A stretch of 6,572 nucleotides of DNA, from IMG/VR virus record IMGVR_UViG_2663762849_000010, positions 1-6,572 of that record; one strand, written 5' to 3'. Shown one piece after another: positions 2-6,572 of the stretch (within the stretch, counting starts at the first letter, position 1; every line of letters begins with the position of its first letter). This DNA comes from a virus (taxonomy: Duplodnaviria; Heunggongvirae; Uroviricota; Caudoviricetes). The notes below the pieces were generated by a model. The model was not told the DNA's origin and did no database searches. It worked only from the letters and a program-made list of their open reading frames with translations. Both the position numbers and the translations under genes were made by a program.

Positions 2-277
2 CACATCCTGCGCCTCTAAAATTACGGGGCGCTTTTCCGGCAACGGTTCGTTCCCTTCACATAACCCGGCAGCAACATCCATGAAAAACTGCTTCGCCTG
101 CTTTTTCGCCTCAGCTTCGTAACACTCCAGCGTGGCATCTTCAGTACGGTCAAGACTAATCGCCACATCTGGCAACAACAGTGACGGATACCCACCAATT
201 TCCAGTGCCACAGTAACAGTAATCTTATTCGGGTAATTATTTATCCCTTTAACAACCAGTTCGTATTTTTTCTTCAT
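2..277 (-). CDS. Partial CDS (N-terminal 92 codons, continues past window start); uncharacterized lambdoid-prophage protein directly downstream of the holin, in the position YdfR occupies in prophage Qin; not an endolysin
   Basis: ATG at 277..275 lies 4 nt after the S stop codon, preceded by GGAGAG (SD). Frame is open to position 2. Translation MKKKYELVVKGINNYPNKITVTVALEIGGYPSLLLPDVAISLDRTEDATLECYEAEAKKQAKQFFMDVAAGLCEGNEPLPEKRPVILEAQDV is soluble-looking, with no SAR or lysozyme motifs. The YdfR/DUF1327 comparison is from memory of Qin gene order only. Confidence 0.6.
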   Translation of the reverse strand, partial: MKKKYELVVKGINNYPNKITVTVALEIGGYPSLLLPDVAISLDRTEDATLECYEAEAKKQAKQFFMDVAAGLCEGNEPLPEKRPVILEAQDV

Positions 278-281
278 CGCT

Positions 282-497
282 TTACTCTCCCCGCGCCGCC
301 TTACGACGGTCCTCTCTGATTTTGAAATACAGGTTAGTCAGATATGTCAGCAGCCCAAACAGCAGACTTCCCAGTACGCCTATTGCCGCCCACTGAGACG
401 GGGAAACCCTGTCCAGCAGCTGCAGGAACCAGTAGCCCGTCCCCACCGCTGACGTGGTGTATGACACACCTGTTGTGATTTTTTCCATCTGGTACAT
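282..497 (-). CDS. S: Class II holin / pinholin, S21-like (71 aa), with dual-start motif M-Y-Q-M
   Basis: ATG at 497..495 with GGAG 7 nt upstream; second in-frame Met at codon 4 (488..486) gives the 71/68-aa antiholin/holin pair typical of S21-type pinholins. Hydrophobic core and C-terminal [13 protein letters not shown] tail match the S21/EssQ family as recalled. Confidence 0.85.
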
Positions 498-572
498 ACC
501 CCGTCTCCCGCAATCCGGAAGCTCACAACAACAAGAGGGGCATCAGCTCACACCGACAGCCCCTGCGCATGG

Positions 573-842
573 TTACATCATCATTTCGCCGTCAGGCTGA
601 GGCTCACTGCTACCATCAGGCTGAGACCCGACGCCATCTGAAACAGCACTGTCATCCGCAATGCCTTCCGGCTCCGGAACAGTCGGTGCGCCCAGCAGTT
701 CATCCAGAATGGCATCCACTTCTGCATCAAGACGCTCCTCAAGGTTCTGCCGAAGTTGCTGTTTCAGTGCGCTTCTGACTTCTTCAGAGCGCAGGACTTC
801 CTTCACTGCTTCAGCAGTGACCAGCGATTTTATTTCTGACAT
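573..842 (-). CDS. Hypothetical acidic protein (89 aa), helical N-terminal half and Asp/Glu/Pro/Ser-rich C-terminal tail
   Basis: The track ORF 573..956 begins with TTG; the first ATG (842..840) gives MSEIKSLVTAEAVKEVLRSEEVRSALKQQLRQNLEERLDAEVDAILDELLG... Only a weak SD (GAGAAAA). Sits between nanS-p and S on the same strand. Confidence 0.45.
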   Translation of the reverse strand: MSEIKSLVTAEAVKEVLRSEEVRSALKQQLRQNLEERLDAEVDAILDELLGAPTVPEPEGIADDSAVSDGVGSQPDGSSEPQPDGEMMM

Positions 843-879
843 GGTATTTTCTCGTTGAAAGGTGTTGTTAAGAAAGTTG

Positions 880-1062
880 CTACGGAATGAGAGGCTCTTC
901 GGGTTTTGTTCCGGCTGACTGACTGGCACTGATTTTCTCAGCGGCCCTTTTGTCAATCTGTCTGCGCCAGAAATCTCTCACGACTCTGTACCCACCAGAA
1001 AGAAGATACAGCACACAAACTGCTGTACAGAAATACAACATAATCAGCTGTAAAAATGTCAT
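880..1062 (-). CDS. Small membrane protein (60 aa), one N-terminal transmembrane helix then a basic tail
   Basis: ATG at 1062..1060 with GGAG 7 nt upstream. MTFLQLIMLYFCTAVCVLYLLSGGY is hydrophobic, followed by RVVRDFWRRQIDKRAAEK. Same strand and operon context as the lysis genes. Confidence 0.55.
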   Translation of the reverse strand: MTFLQLIMLYFCTAVCVLYLLSGGYRVVRDFWRRQIDKRAAEKISASQSAGTKPEEPLIP

Positions 1063-1211
1063 TATTCATCTCCATTATTGACATGGTCAATGCCTGCCAG
1101 TAAAAAACTCCTGCATTTTTTGCTCAGCATATTTTTGCTAAGGATGTAGCGACTTCTGCCGCCGGTTCTGGCTCCTTGTTTTCCCTGCCACGGCGGTCTT
1201 TTTTTTCCTGC

Positions 1212-3155
1212 TTACGGGTTATTCACTTCCACTGTTATACTTTCAATCAGCACCGTATACGTCGCCGCTTTTGTGATATCCGTTACACGTAATTTGTCTG
1301 CCGCAAAAGAACCTACCGGAGACTGCGACAGCATGAACGGTGCACCATCCTGACCATCAATCACCGGCGTCACCTGAATGCTGTTATTACCGGCAAAACG
1401 GAAGCCCAGCGTATGCCATTCGTTGTCAAATGCGCCGAATGACCCCAGCTTCGTGTTCTGGTCAGCGTTACCCTTGTGGTACATCACGTTGAGGTCTGTG
1501 GCATCGCTCTGTACGTAAAACGACGCCAGCAGATTGTTACCGGCATTACCTTCCAGTGTGACACCCTGAGGCAATGAAGAAACCGGCCAGTACAGCGCCA
1601 GTGCGTACTGATTAGCCGTAAGCGCGCCATCGAGTTTAAAACGACAACTGACAAGACCACCTTTACCCAGCAGGTCCGCACCATTACCAGCATCATGCTC
1701 AAGGTACCAGGGGGCTCTTCCTGTTTCCTTGGTCAGTTTCATTGCCTTACCCCCGCTGGCTCCGGCATCATCCACGATTTGAGCCTTGCCACCTCCAGCA
1801 GCCCAACCCTGTGGTGTCAACCGTCCTTCAGACTCAGATGCCCGGTAAGCAAATAGCGTACTCATCGTCGTGGTGTCTGCGGGTGGCGTGGACGGTTTTG
1901 ATGGTGTATCAGGTGACGGCTTCTCATCCGGTGGTGTCACGGTCTGCCCGCGCATCAATTCAGCCGTGCGCCCTGCATGGAGCATAATAGCTGAGGCCAG
2001 ACGGTCTGAAATGACGCCCCTGCGTGCCCATGAGCTGAAATGGCTGTCACGCTGTGTCGAAACAAAACTGCCCTGGGTTCGGGATGCTGCACCGTAATAC
2101 CCGACAGCCACAATATCCGGGTCTTCCGCCGGAGCATTCGTTGGCGTGCTCTGTCCATTCTCATCCGTCAGGAACGGTACAAAGAAAATATTCTGTGCTT
2201 CCCTGCCCTTGTAACCGCCATATACCGCCTCATATTTATCGGCGTTAAGATTCTTCCAGTAATACGTGGTGTCACCACAAATCCACGGCACCGAGCCAGC
2301 ACTTCCGCCAACACACTGTGCAGAATATGCAGCCATATCAGCCCTGAACTGCTGCACCATAGTGGTAAACAGGCCGCTGTGCTGCTGACTGCCGTCCGCA
2401 AGATCATTTTCCCCCTGCATCCATACCACGGCCAGAAGCCTGTTTTTCGGGTTCTTCGACAGCGCCGCTTTTGTACGGAAGAGAAAATCCTGATACAGCG
2501 GTTTACCCACTCCCCAGCGGGCTGAATTTGCCGATGCGCCAGACGTTTCGCTGAACGTGCCGTCATTACCCACGGTTAAACCAGACCCGCCACGGCAACA
2601 GGGCACCAGAAGAATCCCGGCATTCTGCGGGATATAAGGCAGCAGTTTTTTGGCAATATGCAGCCCCTGACCGACAGTCCCGTACTGGCCCTTACTCAGG
2701 TCTGCATGAGGATGGTTAAGTGCGCTCATGTCCTGAACATCATGCAGACAGTGGTCTGCCGGAATAACGTCATTGTATGCACAGATATCACCACCCGGCG
2801 TCACAGTGCTGCGACGGGCCAGCTGCTTAATACGGGAGTCAGGGCGATCATAGGTCTCCGGCAGAGGAAGCCCCTCACCATAGGCCATACCGTTCGACTG
2901 CCCGGCCAGGGGAATAACGTAGTAATACTCCGGTTCAGTGGTAGCCACTCCCGGAGAGCCACCAGCCCCTGTGTCGGGCACAACCACAGGCGTGGTCACA
3001 TCACCCTCTGCGGCAATGGCCTGCATCAGTGTATAAGGCGTGATAGCCACAGGACTGCCAAACGGCTGCCAGCCTTCCTTCAGTTTTTGTGTCAGTCGCT
3101 CCGCAAGGTCTGACGGCGACGCCGCCCTGACCACGTCATAGTGTTTAAATGCCAT
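1212..3155 (-). CDS. nanS-p: Prophage 9-O-acetyl-N-acetylneuraminic acid (sialate) O-acetylesterase, NanS-p type: DUF1737-like N-terminal domain, SASA/SGNH esterase core, Pro/Thr/Ser-rich linker, C-terminal beta-rich domain (647 aa)
   Basis: The track ORF starts at a TTG (3185); the real start is taken as ATG 3155..3153, preceded by GGGGAGGAATA (strong SD), giving MAFKHYDVVRAASPSDLAERL... Contains the esterase nucleophile motif IPLAGQSNGMAYGEG, a linker PPDEKPSPDTPSKPSTPPADTTT, and stop TAA at 1214..1212. Architecture matches the large ORF found downstream of stx2 in Stx phages (L0105/Z1466 type) as recalled. Confidence 0.9.
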   Translation of the reverse strand: MAFKHYDVVRAASPSDLAERLTQKLKEGWQPFGSPVAITPYTLMQAIAAEGDVTTPVVVPDTGAGGSPGVATTEPEYYYVIPLAGQSNGMAYGEGLPLPETYDRPDSRIKQLARRSTVTPGGDICAYNDVIPADHCLHDVQDMSALNHPHADLSKGQYGTVGQGLHIAKKLLPYIPQNAGILLVPCCRGGSGLTVGNDGTFSETSGASANSARWGVGKPLYQDFLFRTKAALSKNPKNRLLAVVWMQGENDLADGSQQHSGLFTTMVQQFRADMAAYSAQCVGGSAGSVPWICGDTTYYWKNLNADKYEAVYGGYKGREAQNIFFVPFLTDENGQSTPTNAPAEDPDIVAVGYYGAASRTQGSFVSTQRDSHFSSWARRGVISDRLASAIMLHAGRTAELMRGQTVTPPDEKPSPDTPSKPSTPPADTTTMSTLFAYRASESEGRLTPQGWAAGGGKAQIVDDAGASGGKAMKLTKETGRAPWYLEHDAGNGADLLGKGGLVSCRFKLDGALTANQYALALYWPVSSLPQGVTLEGNAGNNLLASFYVQSDATDLNVMYHKGNADQNTKLGSFGAFDNEWHTLGFRFAGNNSIQVTPVIDGQDGAPFMLSQSPVGSFAADKLRVTDITKAATYTVLIESITVEVNNP

Positions 3156-3243
3156 TATTCCTCCCCTTTCCGGGATTTTCCTCAACAGTTGCGGGCCACG
3201 GTCCGGCTACACGGAGAATCAAAAGAGGAGAACCGCAGCCCGC

Positions 3244-3274
3244 AAAACGAAAAAGGCCGCGCAGTTGCGCAGCC
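3244..3274 (-). terminator. Intrinsic terminator-like hairpin on the minus strand, about 90 nt upstream of the nanS-p start
   Basis: Minus-strand RNA GGCUGCGC-AACU-GCGCGGCC (8-bp stem with one G.U pair) followed by UUUUUCGUUUU. The plus-strand version has a C-A mismatch and no U tract. Confidence 0.5.
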
Positions 3275-3338
3275 TTATCACAGATGGTAAAAATCAGAAC
3301 ACGATAATAAAAATACCTGATGTATATTCATGCGACCC

Positions 3339-3366
3339 GCCCGCCACTCACTGCGGGCTTTTTTTT
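3339..3366 (+). terminator. Strong intrinsic terminator on the plus strand
   Basis: GCCCGC-CACTCACT-GCGGGC followed by eight T (3359..3366). On the minus strand the hairpin follows an A-run and has no U tract, so it is plus-specific. No annotated plus-strand gene lies upstream. Confidence 0.55.
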
Positions 3367-3374
3367 GCCCATAG

Positions 3375-3401
3375 AAAAGCCCCTCCGGAGAGGGGCTTTT
3401 T
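3375..3401. terminator. Bidirectional terminator hairpin
   Basis: AAAA-GCCCCTC-CGGA-GAGGGGC-TTTTT: 7-bp GC stem flanked by an A4 and a T5 run, so a U tract follows the hairpin on either strand. Confidence 0.5.
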
Positions 3402-3641
3402 ACAGTGGTAGTGTAGACAATTTTGCATGGTGCCGGGTGCCTCCCGGTGAGTTCAGTATCAGCACCTGAACCCGCACAGAAAGGATAAGGGTCGGTGACA
3501 AAACACCAGTTGCTGATTGCCCCTCCGCTTAGGGGGATTCACCATGCCAGTTTCTTTTAACAAACTCCCCGCAAACCAGACAACAGTCAACCGCCTGAAT
3601 TGTGAGGTATTTAAAAATTTCAACGGGTAACTGATACCCTG

Positions 3642-3803
3642 CTAATCGCCTGATGCTTTCTTTTTCAGCAACGGGAAAGCAACAACCACCACACCCGCCA
3701 CCAGCACACCGTCAGCCAGCACTGACATTATCCGGCTGCTGAAGTCCACCATCACCACCATCACCACCAGAAACAGCAGGAGCGCAACCACAGCCAGACG
3801 CAT
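3642..3803 (-). CDS. Possible small hydrophobic peptide (53 aa, two predicted transmembrane segments) directly downstream of the TerB-like gene
   Basis: ATG at 3803..3801, 8 nt after the TerB-like stop; translation MRLAVVALLLFLVVMVVMVDFSSRIMSVLADGVLVAGVVVVAFPLLKKKASGD, stop TAG at 3644..3642. No good SD (possible coupling). Below the 60-aa cut-off of the supplied track. Contains rare codons CGG and ATA. Confidence 0.3.
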   Translation of the reverse strand: MRLAVVALLLFLVVMVVMVDFSSRIMSVLADGVLVAGVVVVAFPLLKKKASGD

Positions 3804-3811
3804 TTTTACCG

Positions 3812-4243
3812 TCACAGATGATTCTCCAGACGAAGGCCCAGAACACCGGCAATCTCTTCCAGCACCTTGCGCTCTTCCGGCTCTATTTCGCCGTCTGCTT
3901 CGGCAATGGCCACCGCCACATCCAGCACGTCTTCCGCTTCACGCGTATCGTGTTTCACATCCTCGATCTCACGTAACGCCGCTCGACGACCAATTTTAAA
4001 GTTCGTATCCAGCTGACCGATAATGGTTGCGCTAATCGCATTAATTTCTGACGTAAACGCGGACAACGCAGGCTGGTTACGCAAGACCTGCTCGATCTTC
4101 GCTTTCTCTGAAGCCTCACATTCACCATCTGCATAGGCCACCAGATAGGCAGCATTAATAACCGCCTGTGCCAGATCACGTTTCTCAAACTTTTTAATTT
4201 CCACTGCCGCTCGGCGGGCTTTTTTACCAAAAATACCAAACAT
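3812..4243 (-). CDS. TerB-like (tellurite-resistance TerB family) protein, 143 aa
   Basis: Start taken at ATG 4243..4241 with AAGGAA SD 7 nt upstream; the upstream ATG at 4315 has poorer context and would add 24 non-domain residues. Two repeats of the acidic TerB-type motif (AAYLVAYADGECEASEKAKIEQVL and VLDVAVAIAEADGEIEPEERKVLEEIAGVLGL) and an N-terminus MFGIFGKKARRAAVE resembling TerB N-termini, judged from memory of the family. Confidence 0.7.
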   Translation of the reverse strand: MFGIFGKKARRAAVEIKKFEKRDLAQAVINAAYLVAYADGECEASEKAKIEQVLRNQPALSAFTSEINAISATIIGQLDTNFKIGRRAALREIEDVKHDTREAEDVLDVAVAIAEADGEIEPEERKVLEEIAGVLGLRLENHL

Positions 4244-4375
4244 CGTGACGTTCCTTTGGGTGGGTGAGCCAACGCCCGGGAGCGATCTGCCCACAGAGAA
4301 AGTCACACTGACCATTCCGTAAGCTCACCCCCGAAAGGCTCTGTGGTTGATATGCGCCGGGCGTGGCGCGGATAC

Positions 4376-4402
4376 AAAAAAGGCCCGCAAAAGCGAGCCG
4401 GG
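4376..4402 (-). terminator. Intrinsic terminator immediately downstream of the tRNA cluster
   Basis: Minus-strand RNA GGCUCGC-UUUU-GCGGGCC (7-bp stem with one G.U) followed by UUUUUU; begins about 12 nt after the CCA end of the last tRNA. Confidence 0.65.
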
Positions 4403-4413
4403 AAAAATAAGTC

Positions 4414-4490
4414 TGGCGCGTTGTACTGGATTCGAACCAGTGACCGATTGCTTAGAAGGCAATTGCTCTGTCCGGCTGAGCTAACAACGC
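4414..4490 (-). tRNA. argO: tRNA-Arg (anticodon UCU, decodes AGA/AGG), 77 nt with encoded CCA
   Basis: Hand-folded cloverleaf: acceptor GCGUUGU/ACAACGC, D-arm GCUC/GAGC, anticodon stem AUUGC/GCAAU with loop CUUCUAA, T-loop UUCGAAU, 3' GCCA. Symbol assigned by synteny with the ileZ-argN-argO cluster of Stx phages, not verified. Confidence 0.88.
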
Positions 4491-4504
4491 AGAATGCCGA
4501 TAAA

Positions 4505-4581
4505 TGGACCGCCATCGAGGACTCGAACCCCGCGCAACCAGCTTCGAAGGCTGGCGCTCTTTCCTGATGAGCTAATGGCGG
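4505..4581 (-). tRNA. argN: tRNA-Arg (anticodon UCG, decodes CGA/CGG), 77 nt with encoded CCA
   Basis: Cloverleaf: acceptor CCGCCAU/AUGGCGG, D-arm GCUC/GAGC, anticodon stem CCAGC/GCUGG with loop CUUCGAA, T-arm CGGGG/CCUCG with loop UUCGAGU. Unusual C1 and U73 discriminator noted. Symbol by synteny only. Confidence 0.8.
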
Positions 4582-4588
4582 TATGTGA

Positions 4589-4664
4589 TGGTGGCCCTTG
4601 CTGGATTTGAACCAGCGACCTGGCGATTATGAGTCGCTCGCTCTCACCACTGAGCTAAAGGGCC
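4589..4664 (-). tRNA. ileZ: tRNA-Ile2-like (anticodon CAU, presumed lysidine-modified to read AUA), 76 nt with encoded CCA
   Basis: Cloverleaf: acceptor GGCCCUU/AAGGGCC, D-loop AGUGGUGA, anticodon loop CUCAUAA, T-loop UUCAAAU, discriminator A. Closely resembles E. coli tRNA-Ile2 (ileX) rather than initiator or elongator tRNA-Met, judged from memory of that sequence. Confidence 0.85.
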
Positions 4665-4670
4665 GGGCAT

Positions 4671-4702
4671 AGGATAATAACGGTACGTAACTAATTCTGC
4701 AA
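4671..4702 (-). promoter_or_regulatory. Candidate sigma-70 promoter for the tRNA cluster
   Basis: On the minus strand TTGCAG (-35), 17-nt spacer, TATTAT (-10), ending about 9 nt before the mature 5' end of tRNA-Ile. Hexamer match only. Confidence 0.4.
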
Positions 4703-4713
4703 TCTCATCCGTT

Positions 4714-5040
4714 TCAAACGATTAAATCCTGAACTTCCCTGACTGTCTGCTCAAAACGTCCGGTCTCCAGTTCAACGCCAATCGCACGACGCCCGAGCGC
4801 CAGTGCCGCTTTTACCGTTGAACCTGAGCCCATAAAAAAATCTGCAACCTGGTCTCCCGGACGACTGCTCGCGTTGATTATCTGCTGCAACATTTCTGCC
4901 GGTTTTTCGCACGGATGTTTCCCTGGATAGTACTGCACCGGTTTATACGTCCACACATCCGTGTACGGCACCTGCGCCGTCACGCCAAAATACCGCCGCA
5001 GTCGGCATTCACAACCACCAGCGCATTTAACGTTCAGGCA
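4714..5040 (-). pseudogene. 3' remnant of a beta-class N6-adenine/N4-cytosine DNA methyltransferase: C-terminal AdoMet-binding part only, N-terminal DPPY catalytic part absent
   Basis: Translation contains HPCEKP and DFFMGSGST(V)...GRRAIGVELE (FxGxG motif I). There is no in-frame ATG upstream of the internal Met just before the motif; the open frame runs back through the tR' terminator to the Q stop codon. Stop TGA at 4716..4714. Confidence 0.5.
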
Positions 5041-5067
5041 CAAAAAAACCCGCTCATCGGCGGGTTT
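5041..5067 (-). terminator. tR'-like intrinsic terminator downstream of Q
   Basis: Minus-strand RNA AAA-CCCGC-CGAUGA-GCGGG-UUUUUUU; on the plus strand the hairpin is followed by only TTTAAG, so it is minus-specific. Its 3' end lies about 85 nt after the Q stop. Confidence 0.65.
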
Positions 5068-5160
5068 AAGCTGTGTGGCGTAGTAACCACTCTTAACATA
5101 CTGACATACTTTTTGCGGACCGCGCTAATCATTTTTTACTTTTTTGGGCAGCCAGTCGTC
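5068..5160 (-). promoter_or_regulatory. Putative late promoter pR' / Q-utilization (qut) region overlapping the 3' end of Q
   Basis: Position only: the Q stop-to-terminator interval is too short to hold a promoter plus leader, so the promoter probably overlaps the Q 3' end. No convincing -35/-10 pair found (weak candidates ACGACT and AAAAAT/TATGTT). Confidence 0.3.
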
Positions 5161-5517
5161 CATCTCCAGCCTTACACCCAGCATCGACAGACATCCGTCA
5201 ATAAATCCTTCAGCAATCTGCATCTCAATTCGTATTGCCTTTTCGCTCTTCTTTCTTGTTCTGGCAATCTGCCTTTTTGATATGCGCAGCAGATAATGAG
5301 CTACCAGCAGCGAATACTCGTCCGGTTTTTTCTTCTTCAGGCGCGTAAGGCAGTTTTCGATGATAAGGCCGTCATCATCGCTGCAGGCCGGGCGAGGTTT
5401 AGCGGTGGATGGTAAAAGGCCTTTAAATCCAGCAGCTATCGGAGAATAGTCCACCCCGGCGTTACCACTTGCCGCCCATGCCCCCCAGCGTTCGAGAACC
5501 ATCTGAATATCACGCAT
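5125..5517 (-). CDS. Q: Late-gene antiterminator Q (phage 82 / Stx-phage type), 130 aa
   Basis: The track ORF begins at a TTG (5532); the first ATG (5517..5515) has GGAG 7 nt upstream and gives MRDIQMVLERWGAWAASGNAGVDYSPIAAGFKG... Stop TAG at 5127..5125. Basic C-terminal region; located just upstream of the tR'-like terminator and tRNA cluster, the canonical Q position. Confidence 0.85.
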   Translation of the reverse strand: MRDIQMVLERWGAWAASGNAGVDYSPIAAGFKGLLPSTAKPRPACSDDDGLIIENCLTRLKKKKPDEYSLLVAHYLLRISKRQIARTRKKSEKAIRIEMQIAEGFIDGCLSMLGVRLEMDDWLPKKVKND

Positions 5518-5534
5518 CAACTTTCTCCACAAAA

Positions 5535-6530
5535 TCAGGACAGCACACCAATCGCCAGCGCGCGATCGATAAAACGAAATATCAGCTCCAGTTGGGAACC
5601 ATACTTATCTTCAAATGCCACGGTATCCGCATGCAGTTTGTCATGGTGTTTTCTGCACAACGGCAACACAAAAAGGTCATGCGATTTTGTCCCCATACCA
5701 CCCTGGCCGTGACCAATCAGATGATGCGGATCATCAGCTGGCTTTCCACAACATGCACACGGCTGCGTCTTAACCCAGCGAGTGTACTTTTCATTAACCC
5801 AGCGACGACGTTTGGGGCGTAACATAAAAGACTCCGGCGACTCCGGATCCACTTTCAGCGCCAGCACCTTTTTCGCTTTATCCCGGATAATACTGGTGGC
5901 AGTAACCGAAGGCACAAGGTCACTCTCCCGGGTGACAGACGGCAAAACAGGCTTCGGTAATCTCAGGGCCTTACGGGCTGCACTTTCCGGTAAGGCATCC
6001 GCCAGGTCATTACGAACCAGCCACCAGCACAGTTCCGGCATTGTCACAACGTGACTGTCATCAAAACCAAGATCACGGCGCACAACAGACAACACCCAGC
6101 GGGCACAGTTATCCGTTGCCATTGATTCCAGCCGTTCCGTGAACTGGTCACGGAGGAGATTGTCACAGTGCCAGCACAGACGGATTGCGCCCGGAGCGTG
6201 TCGCATTGTGGTCATGTTCTCGCTGTGCCATCCGGAATGAGGCCACTGGCAGCCTTTTTCACGAAGTAACCAGCTTTCAAGACATTCCACGCCACCAGCA
6301 CGACGGATCACTGCCTCATGGCGGAACACGGCCCGAACGGCAGGATCATCCGCCAGCGGTTGTGATGCCGCCGGAACGGCACCACTGGCGAAAGATGAAT
6401 AACGCTCCGGCTCAGGCTCCAGCAGGACACGCCCCTGCATAAACAGGGGCATCAGCTCTGAACCTGGCCTGAACAATACGATCCCCATACGCGGGGCAAT
6501 TTCAGGGGTCAGTAGTGCTCTCACAGTCAC
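5535..6530 (-). CDS. DUF968 / YdfU-like prophage protein with C-terminal HNH-like Cys/His motif (about 330 aa)
   Basis: C-terminal motif CACCGKPADDPHHLIGHGQ...LPLCRKHHDKLH. Immediately upstream of Q, as ydfU is to quuQ in prophage Qin (recalled). Start uncertain: GTG at 6530 or 6524 (GAGG SD 5 nt upstream of the latter); an in-frame stop lies at 6557..6555. Confidence 0.75.
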   Translation of the reverse strand: MTVRALLTPEIAPRMGIVLFRPGSELMPLFMQGRVLLEPEPERYSSFASGAVPAASQPLADDPAVRAVFRHEAVIRRAGGVECLESWLLREKGCQWPHSGWHSENMTTMRHAPGAIRLCWHCDNLLRDQFTERLESMATDNCARWVLSVVRRDLGFDDSHVVTMPELCWWLVRNDLADALPESAARKALRLPKPVLPSVTRESDLVPSVTATSIIRDKAKKVLALKVDPESPESFMLRPKRRRWVNEKYTRWVKTQPCACCGKPADDPHHLIGHGQGGMGTKSHDLFVLPLCRKHHDKLHADTVAFEDKYGSQLELIFRFIDRALAIGVLS

Positions 6531-6572
6531 CTCAATGAACGGTATCGAGCAGCTTTAACAGCTCAGGAAATC

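Follow-up and report, generated by a model that had tools for sequence, protein, structure and literature searches.

Tree et al. (2014) described the sequence downstream of the Q-antiterminated promoter pR' as one that tolerates moron insertions, with the Shiga toxin 2 (Stx2) genes in Sp5 as one example, and reported convergent small RNAs (sRNAs) between the moron and a conserved downstream open reading frame (ORF), likewise in the non-Stx prophages Sp3, Sp4, Sp9, Sp10, Sp11 and Sp17 (PMC4104026). In lysogens, transcripts from pR' stop at tR' and yield a short RNA that is called StxS in Stx phages (PMC8065619), and the esterase gene nanS-p is on record from Stx as well as non-Stx prophages (PMC8065619, PMC10462455). 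In a 2026 preprint, TerB is one of the genes listed as conserved near prophage sRNAs beside the esterase-holin block. In phage P1, tciA encodes a TerB-like protein (PMC9603915), and tciA and tciB are non-essential accessory genes (PMC10695390). Here we compare these systems with the 6,572-bp DNA of IMG/VR virus record IMGVR_UViG_2663762849_000010 (Caudoviricetes), the whole of which we refer to as the window. We read it as the Q-to-S late regulatory region of a non-Stx lambdoid Escherichia coli prophage in which genes for a TerB-family protein and a DUF3927 protein occupy the moron (stxAB) slot, a reading to which we assign a probability of roughly 0.88.

All sizeable features across the 6572 bp, as given by the ORF list, ARAGORN, Pfam and Rfam, lie on the minus strand, to which the coordinates of features below refer unless the plus strand is named. 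Read in that direction, the order is DUF968, Q, a homologue of pR'/qut/tR', a truncated methylase, ileZ-argN-argO, a terminator, TerB, DUF3927, STnc100, nanS-p, DUF1378, DUF826 and holin S. The initial annotation had recognised a late region of Stx-phage type from the order Q, tR', tRNA-Ile/Arg/Arg, cargo, nanS-p and S, and every one of these landmarks was found in that order and on that strand. The layout is shared with the Stx2 phages 933W, Sp5, Stx2a_1447 and Stx2_EH2201, in which one meets a DUF968/NinG-side gene, Q, pR'-qut-tR', (methylase), ileZ-argN-argO, a terminator, the slot, STnc100/anti-sRNA, nanS-p, small ORFs and holin S. It also resembles the moron site of Tree et al. (PMC4104026), the cargo of the window lying between pR'/Q and an sRNA pair that precedes the conserved ORF nanS-p, with the difference that the anti-sRNA candidate here is sub-threshold (22 bits versus 63).

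On sequence comparison, the region is a mosaic of a Q/tRNA half common to Stx2a phages and a cargo-to-holin half common to non-Stx prophages. The half that runs from DUF968 through Q and tR' to the tRNAs is about 92-93% identical to Stx2a/Stx2d-converting phages, for example Stx2_EH2201, to whose Q module this figure also applies, and the tRNAs match their 933W counterparts at 97-100%. Over the cargo-to-holin half, identity is 97-99.5% with non-Stx prophages but only 71-75% with the Stx phages 933W, Stx2a_1447 and Stx2_EH2201, the block from nanS-p to the holin included. We take the two halves to have been joined through recombination within conserved tRNA/terminator sequence on the flank of the slot. 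Among phage records, 465 have a match to the window, the majority of them Stx-converting phages by organism name. The gene order tRNAs, TerB, DUF3927, SASA esterase, DUF1378, DUF826 and holin is also that of non-Stx prophages. It is shared with phage PPyecE_EH1910; its tRNA-TerB-DUF3927-esterase-holin succession is annotated in the uropathogenic E. coli (UPEC) genome UPEC-245U, together with a methylase pseudogene truncated in the same way and a Q of the same type, and in a non-Stx prophage of the O157:H7 strain Z1833, and the same order from tRNAs to holin is found in the human commensal genome S1-CAM-01-A, which is 97.5% identical over window 26-4680. No complete E. coli genome matches the whole window in one place at high identity (the best reaches about 80% coverage at 92%), so the combination of this Q half with this cargo half appears specific to its lineage, as is normal for the mosaics of lambdoid prophages.

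The window differs from the Stx2 phages most plainly in having neither stxA nor stxB. The absence of any ORF resembling StxA or StxB, stated in the initial annotation, is borne out by tblastn with Stx2A and Stx2B from phage Stx2a_1447 as queries (word size 2, E up to 100), in which the best E was 0.39 and the matches were fragments of at most 21 aa only. Hidden or degenerate stx genes can be rejected, since this search returned noise only. The interval from argO to nanS-p is 1228 bp long and is already occupied by TerB, DUF3927, the sRNA region and terminators, which leaves no room for a 1.24-kb stxAB operon.

Alignment with 933W-type Stx2 phages, proposed with the initial annotation as a way to locate the cargo exchange, places the breakpoints precisely. 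Homology with 933W, Stx2a_1447 and Stx2_EH2201 ends at window 4365 and resumes at 3605, at identical positions for all three phages, and past the slot it extends over the sRNA region, nanS-p and the holin, at no more than 71-75% identity. The first breakpoint lies 11 nt past the T-run of the argO terminator and 42 nt before the stxA ATG in 933W, and the second lies 46 nt after the stxB stop; together they bracket exactly stxAB. Thus 755-759 bp of TerB/DUF3927 stand here where 933W has 1328 bp of stx2AB.

A further allele of the slot is empty. In E. coli 23CRST049 (NZ_AP045822; 6470-6540 of locus L013), the T-run of the argO terminator runs directly into TCACAATTCAGGCGGTTGAC, the sequence just upstream of STnc100, and abuts TCACAATTCAG. 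Homology between this locus and the window ends at 4373 and resumes at 3617, and window 3618-4372, which is the cargo cassette in the stxAB slot, is absent there. In the filled slot, the cassette starts right after the terminator T6 and ends with ATTTTT; these short T-runs at both flanks would fit an insertion as well as a deletion between short repeats. The first 11 nt after the T-run (RTATCYGCGCC) are common to the stx2 and TerB cassettes and missing from the empty allele, a shared 11-mer that is suggestive but too short to give polarity. Across the alleles stx2AB (Stx2a_1447, 933W and Stx2_EH2201), TerB/DUF3927 and empty, the boundaries agree within 8-12 nt. Counted over 5426 complete E. 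coli genomes at a coverage of at least 80%, the TerB/DUF3927 cassette is present in 790, with up to 8 copies per genome, the argO-to-TerB junction in 969 and the empty junction in 937. Because the TerB and empty alleles each occur in hundreds of complete genomes, no polarity of exchange can be assigned.

Two histories had been offered for the locus, a toxin-free relative of Stx phages with exchanged cargo and an stx-replaced derivative. The first is supported by the Stx-like Q/tRNA half at 92-93%, by breakpoints that bracket stxAB and by the existence of an empty allele; the second is the less likely history. It would make the window the recent descendant of a genuine Stx2 phage whose stx2AB had given way to TerB/DUF3927, that is, toxin loss by cassette replacement. 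If this were so, then the 92-93% identity of the DUF968-Q-tR'-tRNA half to Stx2a/Stx2d-converting phages, the exact bracketing of stxAB and the 11 nt that the stx2 and TerB cassettes share to the exclusion of the empty allele would all find a place. An identity of 92-93% is not recent, however, and downstream of the slot identity to these Stx phages is only 71-75%, versus 97.5-99.5% to non-Stx prophages. The same Q type is found, moreover, at 93.4% in the non-Stx prophage PPyecE_EH1910, and the abundance of the TerB (790-969) and empty (937) alleles gives such a replacement no direction. We therefore regard a recent origin from an Stx2 phage as unlikely.

All three sharply bounded alleles start at the T-run of the argO terminator and end just before TCACAATTCAG, which invites the idea that the slot is a discrete cassette-exchange site rather than the product of flanking homologous recombination. 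We think this very improbable. If it were true, then a specific insertion or replacement mechanism would target the terminator T-run or the 11-mer that the two cassettes share, with consequences for our view of how stx genes pass from one prophage backbone to another.

The window is the entire 6572-bp contig of the draft assemblies GCA_000941195.1 and GCA_000936105.1, apart from one base, and its two ends presumably lie in repeats that co-resident lambdoid prophages have in common. A short-read assembly chimera, with the Q/tRNA half of one prophage fused to the cargo/nanS-p half of another via repeated argO/terminator sequence, is therefore conceivable, since the halves have different nearest relatives (window 41-4438 is 99.5% identical to a draft contig with a different Q and different tRNAs), the switch between these relatives sits in argO/terminator sequence present in up to 12 copies per genome and such chimeras have been warned of in assemblies of E. 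coli that make Shiga toxin (PMC8065619), but it is scarcely credible given that the same contig, one base different, was assembled in at least 2 other assemblies, that the complete genome S1-CAM-01-A covers window 26-4680 across the junction in one alignment at 97.5%, that UPEC-245U is colinear over 1954-6572 with the truncated methylase included and that a contig of a metagenome-assembled genome has the methylase remnant, the tRNAs and TerB together. Both joins in the window were verified separately, complete genomes being colinear across each.

If the window is, as we favor, the late regulatory region of a non-Stx prophage with its cargo in the moron slot, then expression of that cargo would be expected to follow the lambdoid scheme. 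Going by homology to lambda and 933W, the pR' that lies just downstream of Q would fire constitutively, and in the lysogen its transcript would stop at tR' (5067-5039), giving a short RNA equivalent to StxS of Stx phages. After induction, Q would load onto or modify RNA polymerase at qut, and the modified polymerase could then read through tR' and three more terminators (4399-4376, 3393-3370 and 3276-3247), co-transcribing three rare-codon tRNAs, TerB/DUF3927, nanS-p and the lysis genes. The four intrinsic terminators that lie on the late strand from Q to nanS-p, two of which fold with z of about -4, are consistent with a strict dependence of the downstream genes on Q antitermination. Counting both strands of the region, there are 7 terminator-like sites versus 2.9 expected. 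No sigma-70-like promoter was detected by a simple promoter scan of the late strand over window 3100-5300, upstream of TerB included, and a sigma-70 promoter specific to the cargo was accordingly set aside for that interval. This result, along with a good Shine-Dalgarno motif for TerB (AAGGA, 8 nt upstream), fits expression of the cargo from the late operon, as for stx2.

Several points weigh against this reading. A simple promoter scan could miss a weak cargo-specific promoter or one that is not of the sigma-70 type, and the activity of pR', read-through by Q and co-transcription of the cargo are all predicted from homology. Only 6.6 kb are available from which to judge whether the prophage is intact or inducible, the methylase in it is already a pseudogene, and the PADLOC match for TerB is marginal (E 0.003).

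The arrangement is real and correctly read, and it is also ordinary and already known, being present in the annotation of hundreds of genomes and in published work. The novelty implied by the initial annotation does not hold, as the slot is the published moron insertion site (PMC4104026) and the presence of nanS-p in non-Stx prophages is established (PMC8065619, PMC10462455). As a discovery it has little importance, and its practical value is modest. It illustrates cleanly, with base-level boundaries, the series of alleles that the stx slot can hold (stx2AB, TerB/DUF3927 and empty), and it recalls that a short contig with Stx-phage-like Q/tRNA/nanS-p signatures need not carry the toxin. Residual interest lies in the three-allele slot at base level and in the function of a very common TerB/TciB-like late-operon cargo.

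The first gene of this cargo (3812-4243) encodes a TerB-family, P1 TciA-like protein of 143 aa, which matches PF05099 (E 1e-15, 58.5 bits versus a cut-off of 24.4) and, over its full length, phrog_632, a "tellurite resistance" moron family (E 3e-69). A TerB family protein is annotated in UPEC-245U, S1-CAM-01-A and the O157:H7 Z1833 prophage as well. The second gene (3642-3815) encodes the DUF3927 (TciB-like) protein, which is small (57 aa) and hydrophobic, with two hydrophobic stretches and matches to PF13064 (E 9e-20) and the TciB-like phrog_1470. Its GTG start overlaps the TerB stop (GTGA), and the cassette is a translationally coupled pair. In the tciA-tciB(-tciC) operon of P1, a TerB-like protein is likewise followed by a small hydrophobic TciB-like protein (phrog_632 and phrog_1470); the two differ in that no tciC equivalent was seen here and in that the setting is a lambdoid late operon versus a P1 plasmid prophage. 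By analogy with P1 tciA/tciB, the most likely role of the pair would be a membrane-associated accessory (moron) function that is dispensable for phage growth. The "tellurite resistance"-type names of the TerB and Tci families are historical annotations, guesses as to function, and the Pfam scan found none of the ter operon partners terC, terD and terZ in the window.

An anti-phage defense role for the cargo found no support. The marginal PADLOC match for TerB was to PDC-S48 and included no passing stretch, and DUF3927, nanS-p and DUF968 had no PADLOC match at all; the methylase remnant matches type II methyltransferase models, though it is truncated. Composition gave no signal of a foreign origin for the cassette, with a GC fraction of 0.534 versus 0.528 for the window. 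In a cross-species search, TerB-family genes at 90-92% amino acid identity were found in Pantoea, Pseudescherichia and Franconibacter (loci L015-L020). Two of these relatives lie downstream of a DUF968 match, one relative is followed by a weak holin match, and neither DUF3927 nor nanS-p was found near the TerB genes of these genera. The full arrangement thus seems restricted to Escherichia, and the TerB gene travels more widely than it does.

Upstream of the slot, the late antiterminator Q (5125-5517; PF06530, E 3e-52; phrog_79) is 130 aa long from its ATG, with an alternative TTG start at 5532. It aligns over its full length with Q of the Stx2a phage Stx2_EH2201 with few substitutions and has conserved blocks in common with Q of 933W. 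Directly upstream of it is a DUF968/HNH-like gene, ydfU-like (5535-6530; PF06147, E 5e-80), which holds the same position in the Stx2a phages Stx2a_1447 and Stx2_EH2201 and in the non-Stx prophages of UPEC-245U and one further locus (L001). Downstream of Q, an 88-bp spacer (5037-5124) is a homologue of pR'/qut/tR', the late promoter region and first intrinsic terminator, as judged by homology with 933W and by its hairpin. Of this spacer, the 63 bp at window 5037-5099 have 84% identity to 1693-1754 of the 933W locus (L005), which is annotated as the 3' end of pR', qut and the first terminator, and this supports the label tR' given in the initial annotation; promoter activity at the pR' homologue is predicted from the same likeness. 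Both the terminator scan and folding place the stem of the tR' hairpin at 5067-5046, followed by T7.

Between tR' and the tRNAs lies a 5'-truncated remnant of an N6/N4 DNA methylase gene (4714-5043), a pseudogene that matches positions 135-219 only of the 221-position PF01555 profile. Relative to Stx2_EH2201, it has suffered a deletion of 1182 bp (7638-8819 in its locus L037), with the junction at window 5001-5003 or thereabouts, which also took out a 198-bp ORF. An identical truncation is present in UPEC-245U, where it is annotated as a pseudogene. In 933W the same methylase gene carries a different, larger deletion, and the 1182-bp deletion of the window is its own.

The three tRNA genes were called by ARAGORN. 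The first, ileZ (4589-4664; Rfam tRNA, 72.5 bits), has the anticodon CAT, which ARAGORN calls Met(CAT), yet it is identical at 76/76 positions to ileZ of 933W, annotated as an AUA-reading Ile tRNA, and PGAP labels the orthologue tRNA-Ile; by homology, we take it as AUA-reading. It is followed by argN (4505-4581, anticodon TCG), identical to 933W argN at 74/77 positions, and argO (4414-4490, anticodon TCT), identical to 933W argO at 76/77. Codon usage of the cargo and nanS-p is unremarkable, and rare-codon enrichment was rejected as an explanation of the tRNAs. The intrinsic terminator after argO (4376-4399, from the terminator scan; folding at -14.0 kcal/mol, z -3.9), whose T-run forms the proximal edge of the cargo slot, is homologous to the terminator annotated upstream of stx in 933W. 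A draft contig (L007) has the block from TerB to the holin at 99.5% but a different Q, of 162 aa, with NinG and a metallophosphatase upstream. At 4394-4627 of that contig, tRNA-Asn and tRNA-Gly stand where the window has Ile/Arg/Arg (compared with window 4414-4490), and its homology with the window stops within the 3' end of argO/tRNA-Gly, a position suggestive of recombination in the 3' ends of tRNAs.

On the distal side, an STnc100-family sRNA gene (3367-3576; Rfam RF02076, full length, 144 bits versus a gathering score of 47, E 8e-33), which has a terminator of its own (3393-3370), comes directly after the cargo cassette, and homologous sequence comes after stx2B in 933W. A TTGAC motif lies just 5' of STnc100, at the distal edge of the slot. 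On the plus strand, a candidate convergent anti-sRNA of the AsxR/AgvB type (3302-3366) scores below threshold (RF02703 AsxR, 22.2 bits versus a gathering score of 63); it has its own terminator (3339-3358, followed by T8), and its position fits the convergent sRNA pair of PMC4104026. A strong intrinsic terminator upstream of nanS-p (3247-3276; -19.2 kcal/mol, z -4.1) is conserved in 933W.

The nanS-p type gene for a prophage sialate O-acetylesterase (1212-3155) encodes 647 aa from its ATG, within an ORF that reaches a TTG at 3185, and its product combines DUF1737, SASA and DUF6645 (phrog_143); orthologues in related loci are annotated as yjhS or as SASA esterase. Then come a DUF1378 small protein (880-1062; PF07125, E 1e-37), a DUF826 protein (573-842; PF05696, E 2e-36), annotated as 89 aa in UPEC-245U and S1-CAM-01-A, and a class II holin S of the phage 21 type (282-497; PF04971, E 9e-33), the start of the lysis cassette. 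Rfam gave no match to Pas-type sRNAs between nanS-p and the holin. The initial annotation covered 1212-5517, so that holin S falls outside its range, though inside the window; nor did it include the methylase remnant (4714-5043), STnc100 (3367-3576) or the fact that the window is an entire draft contig.

Other cargo is seen in the same interval elsewhere. In the non-Stx locus of 23CRST049 (L013, 5915-6250), and likewise in the Stx2a phage Stx2_EH2201 (L037, 5098-5421), a moron encoding the anti-adaptor IraM sits on the opposite strand, between the sRNA region and nanS-p; this position is a second, independent cargo site, at which the window has no insert. At other loci, the interval from Q to S varies further, with TolA-like genes where the window has nanS-p, a toxin-antitoxin-like pair where it has the tRNAs, or tRNA-Asn/Gly where it has Ile/Arg/Arg.

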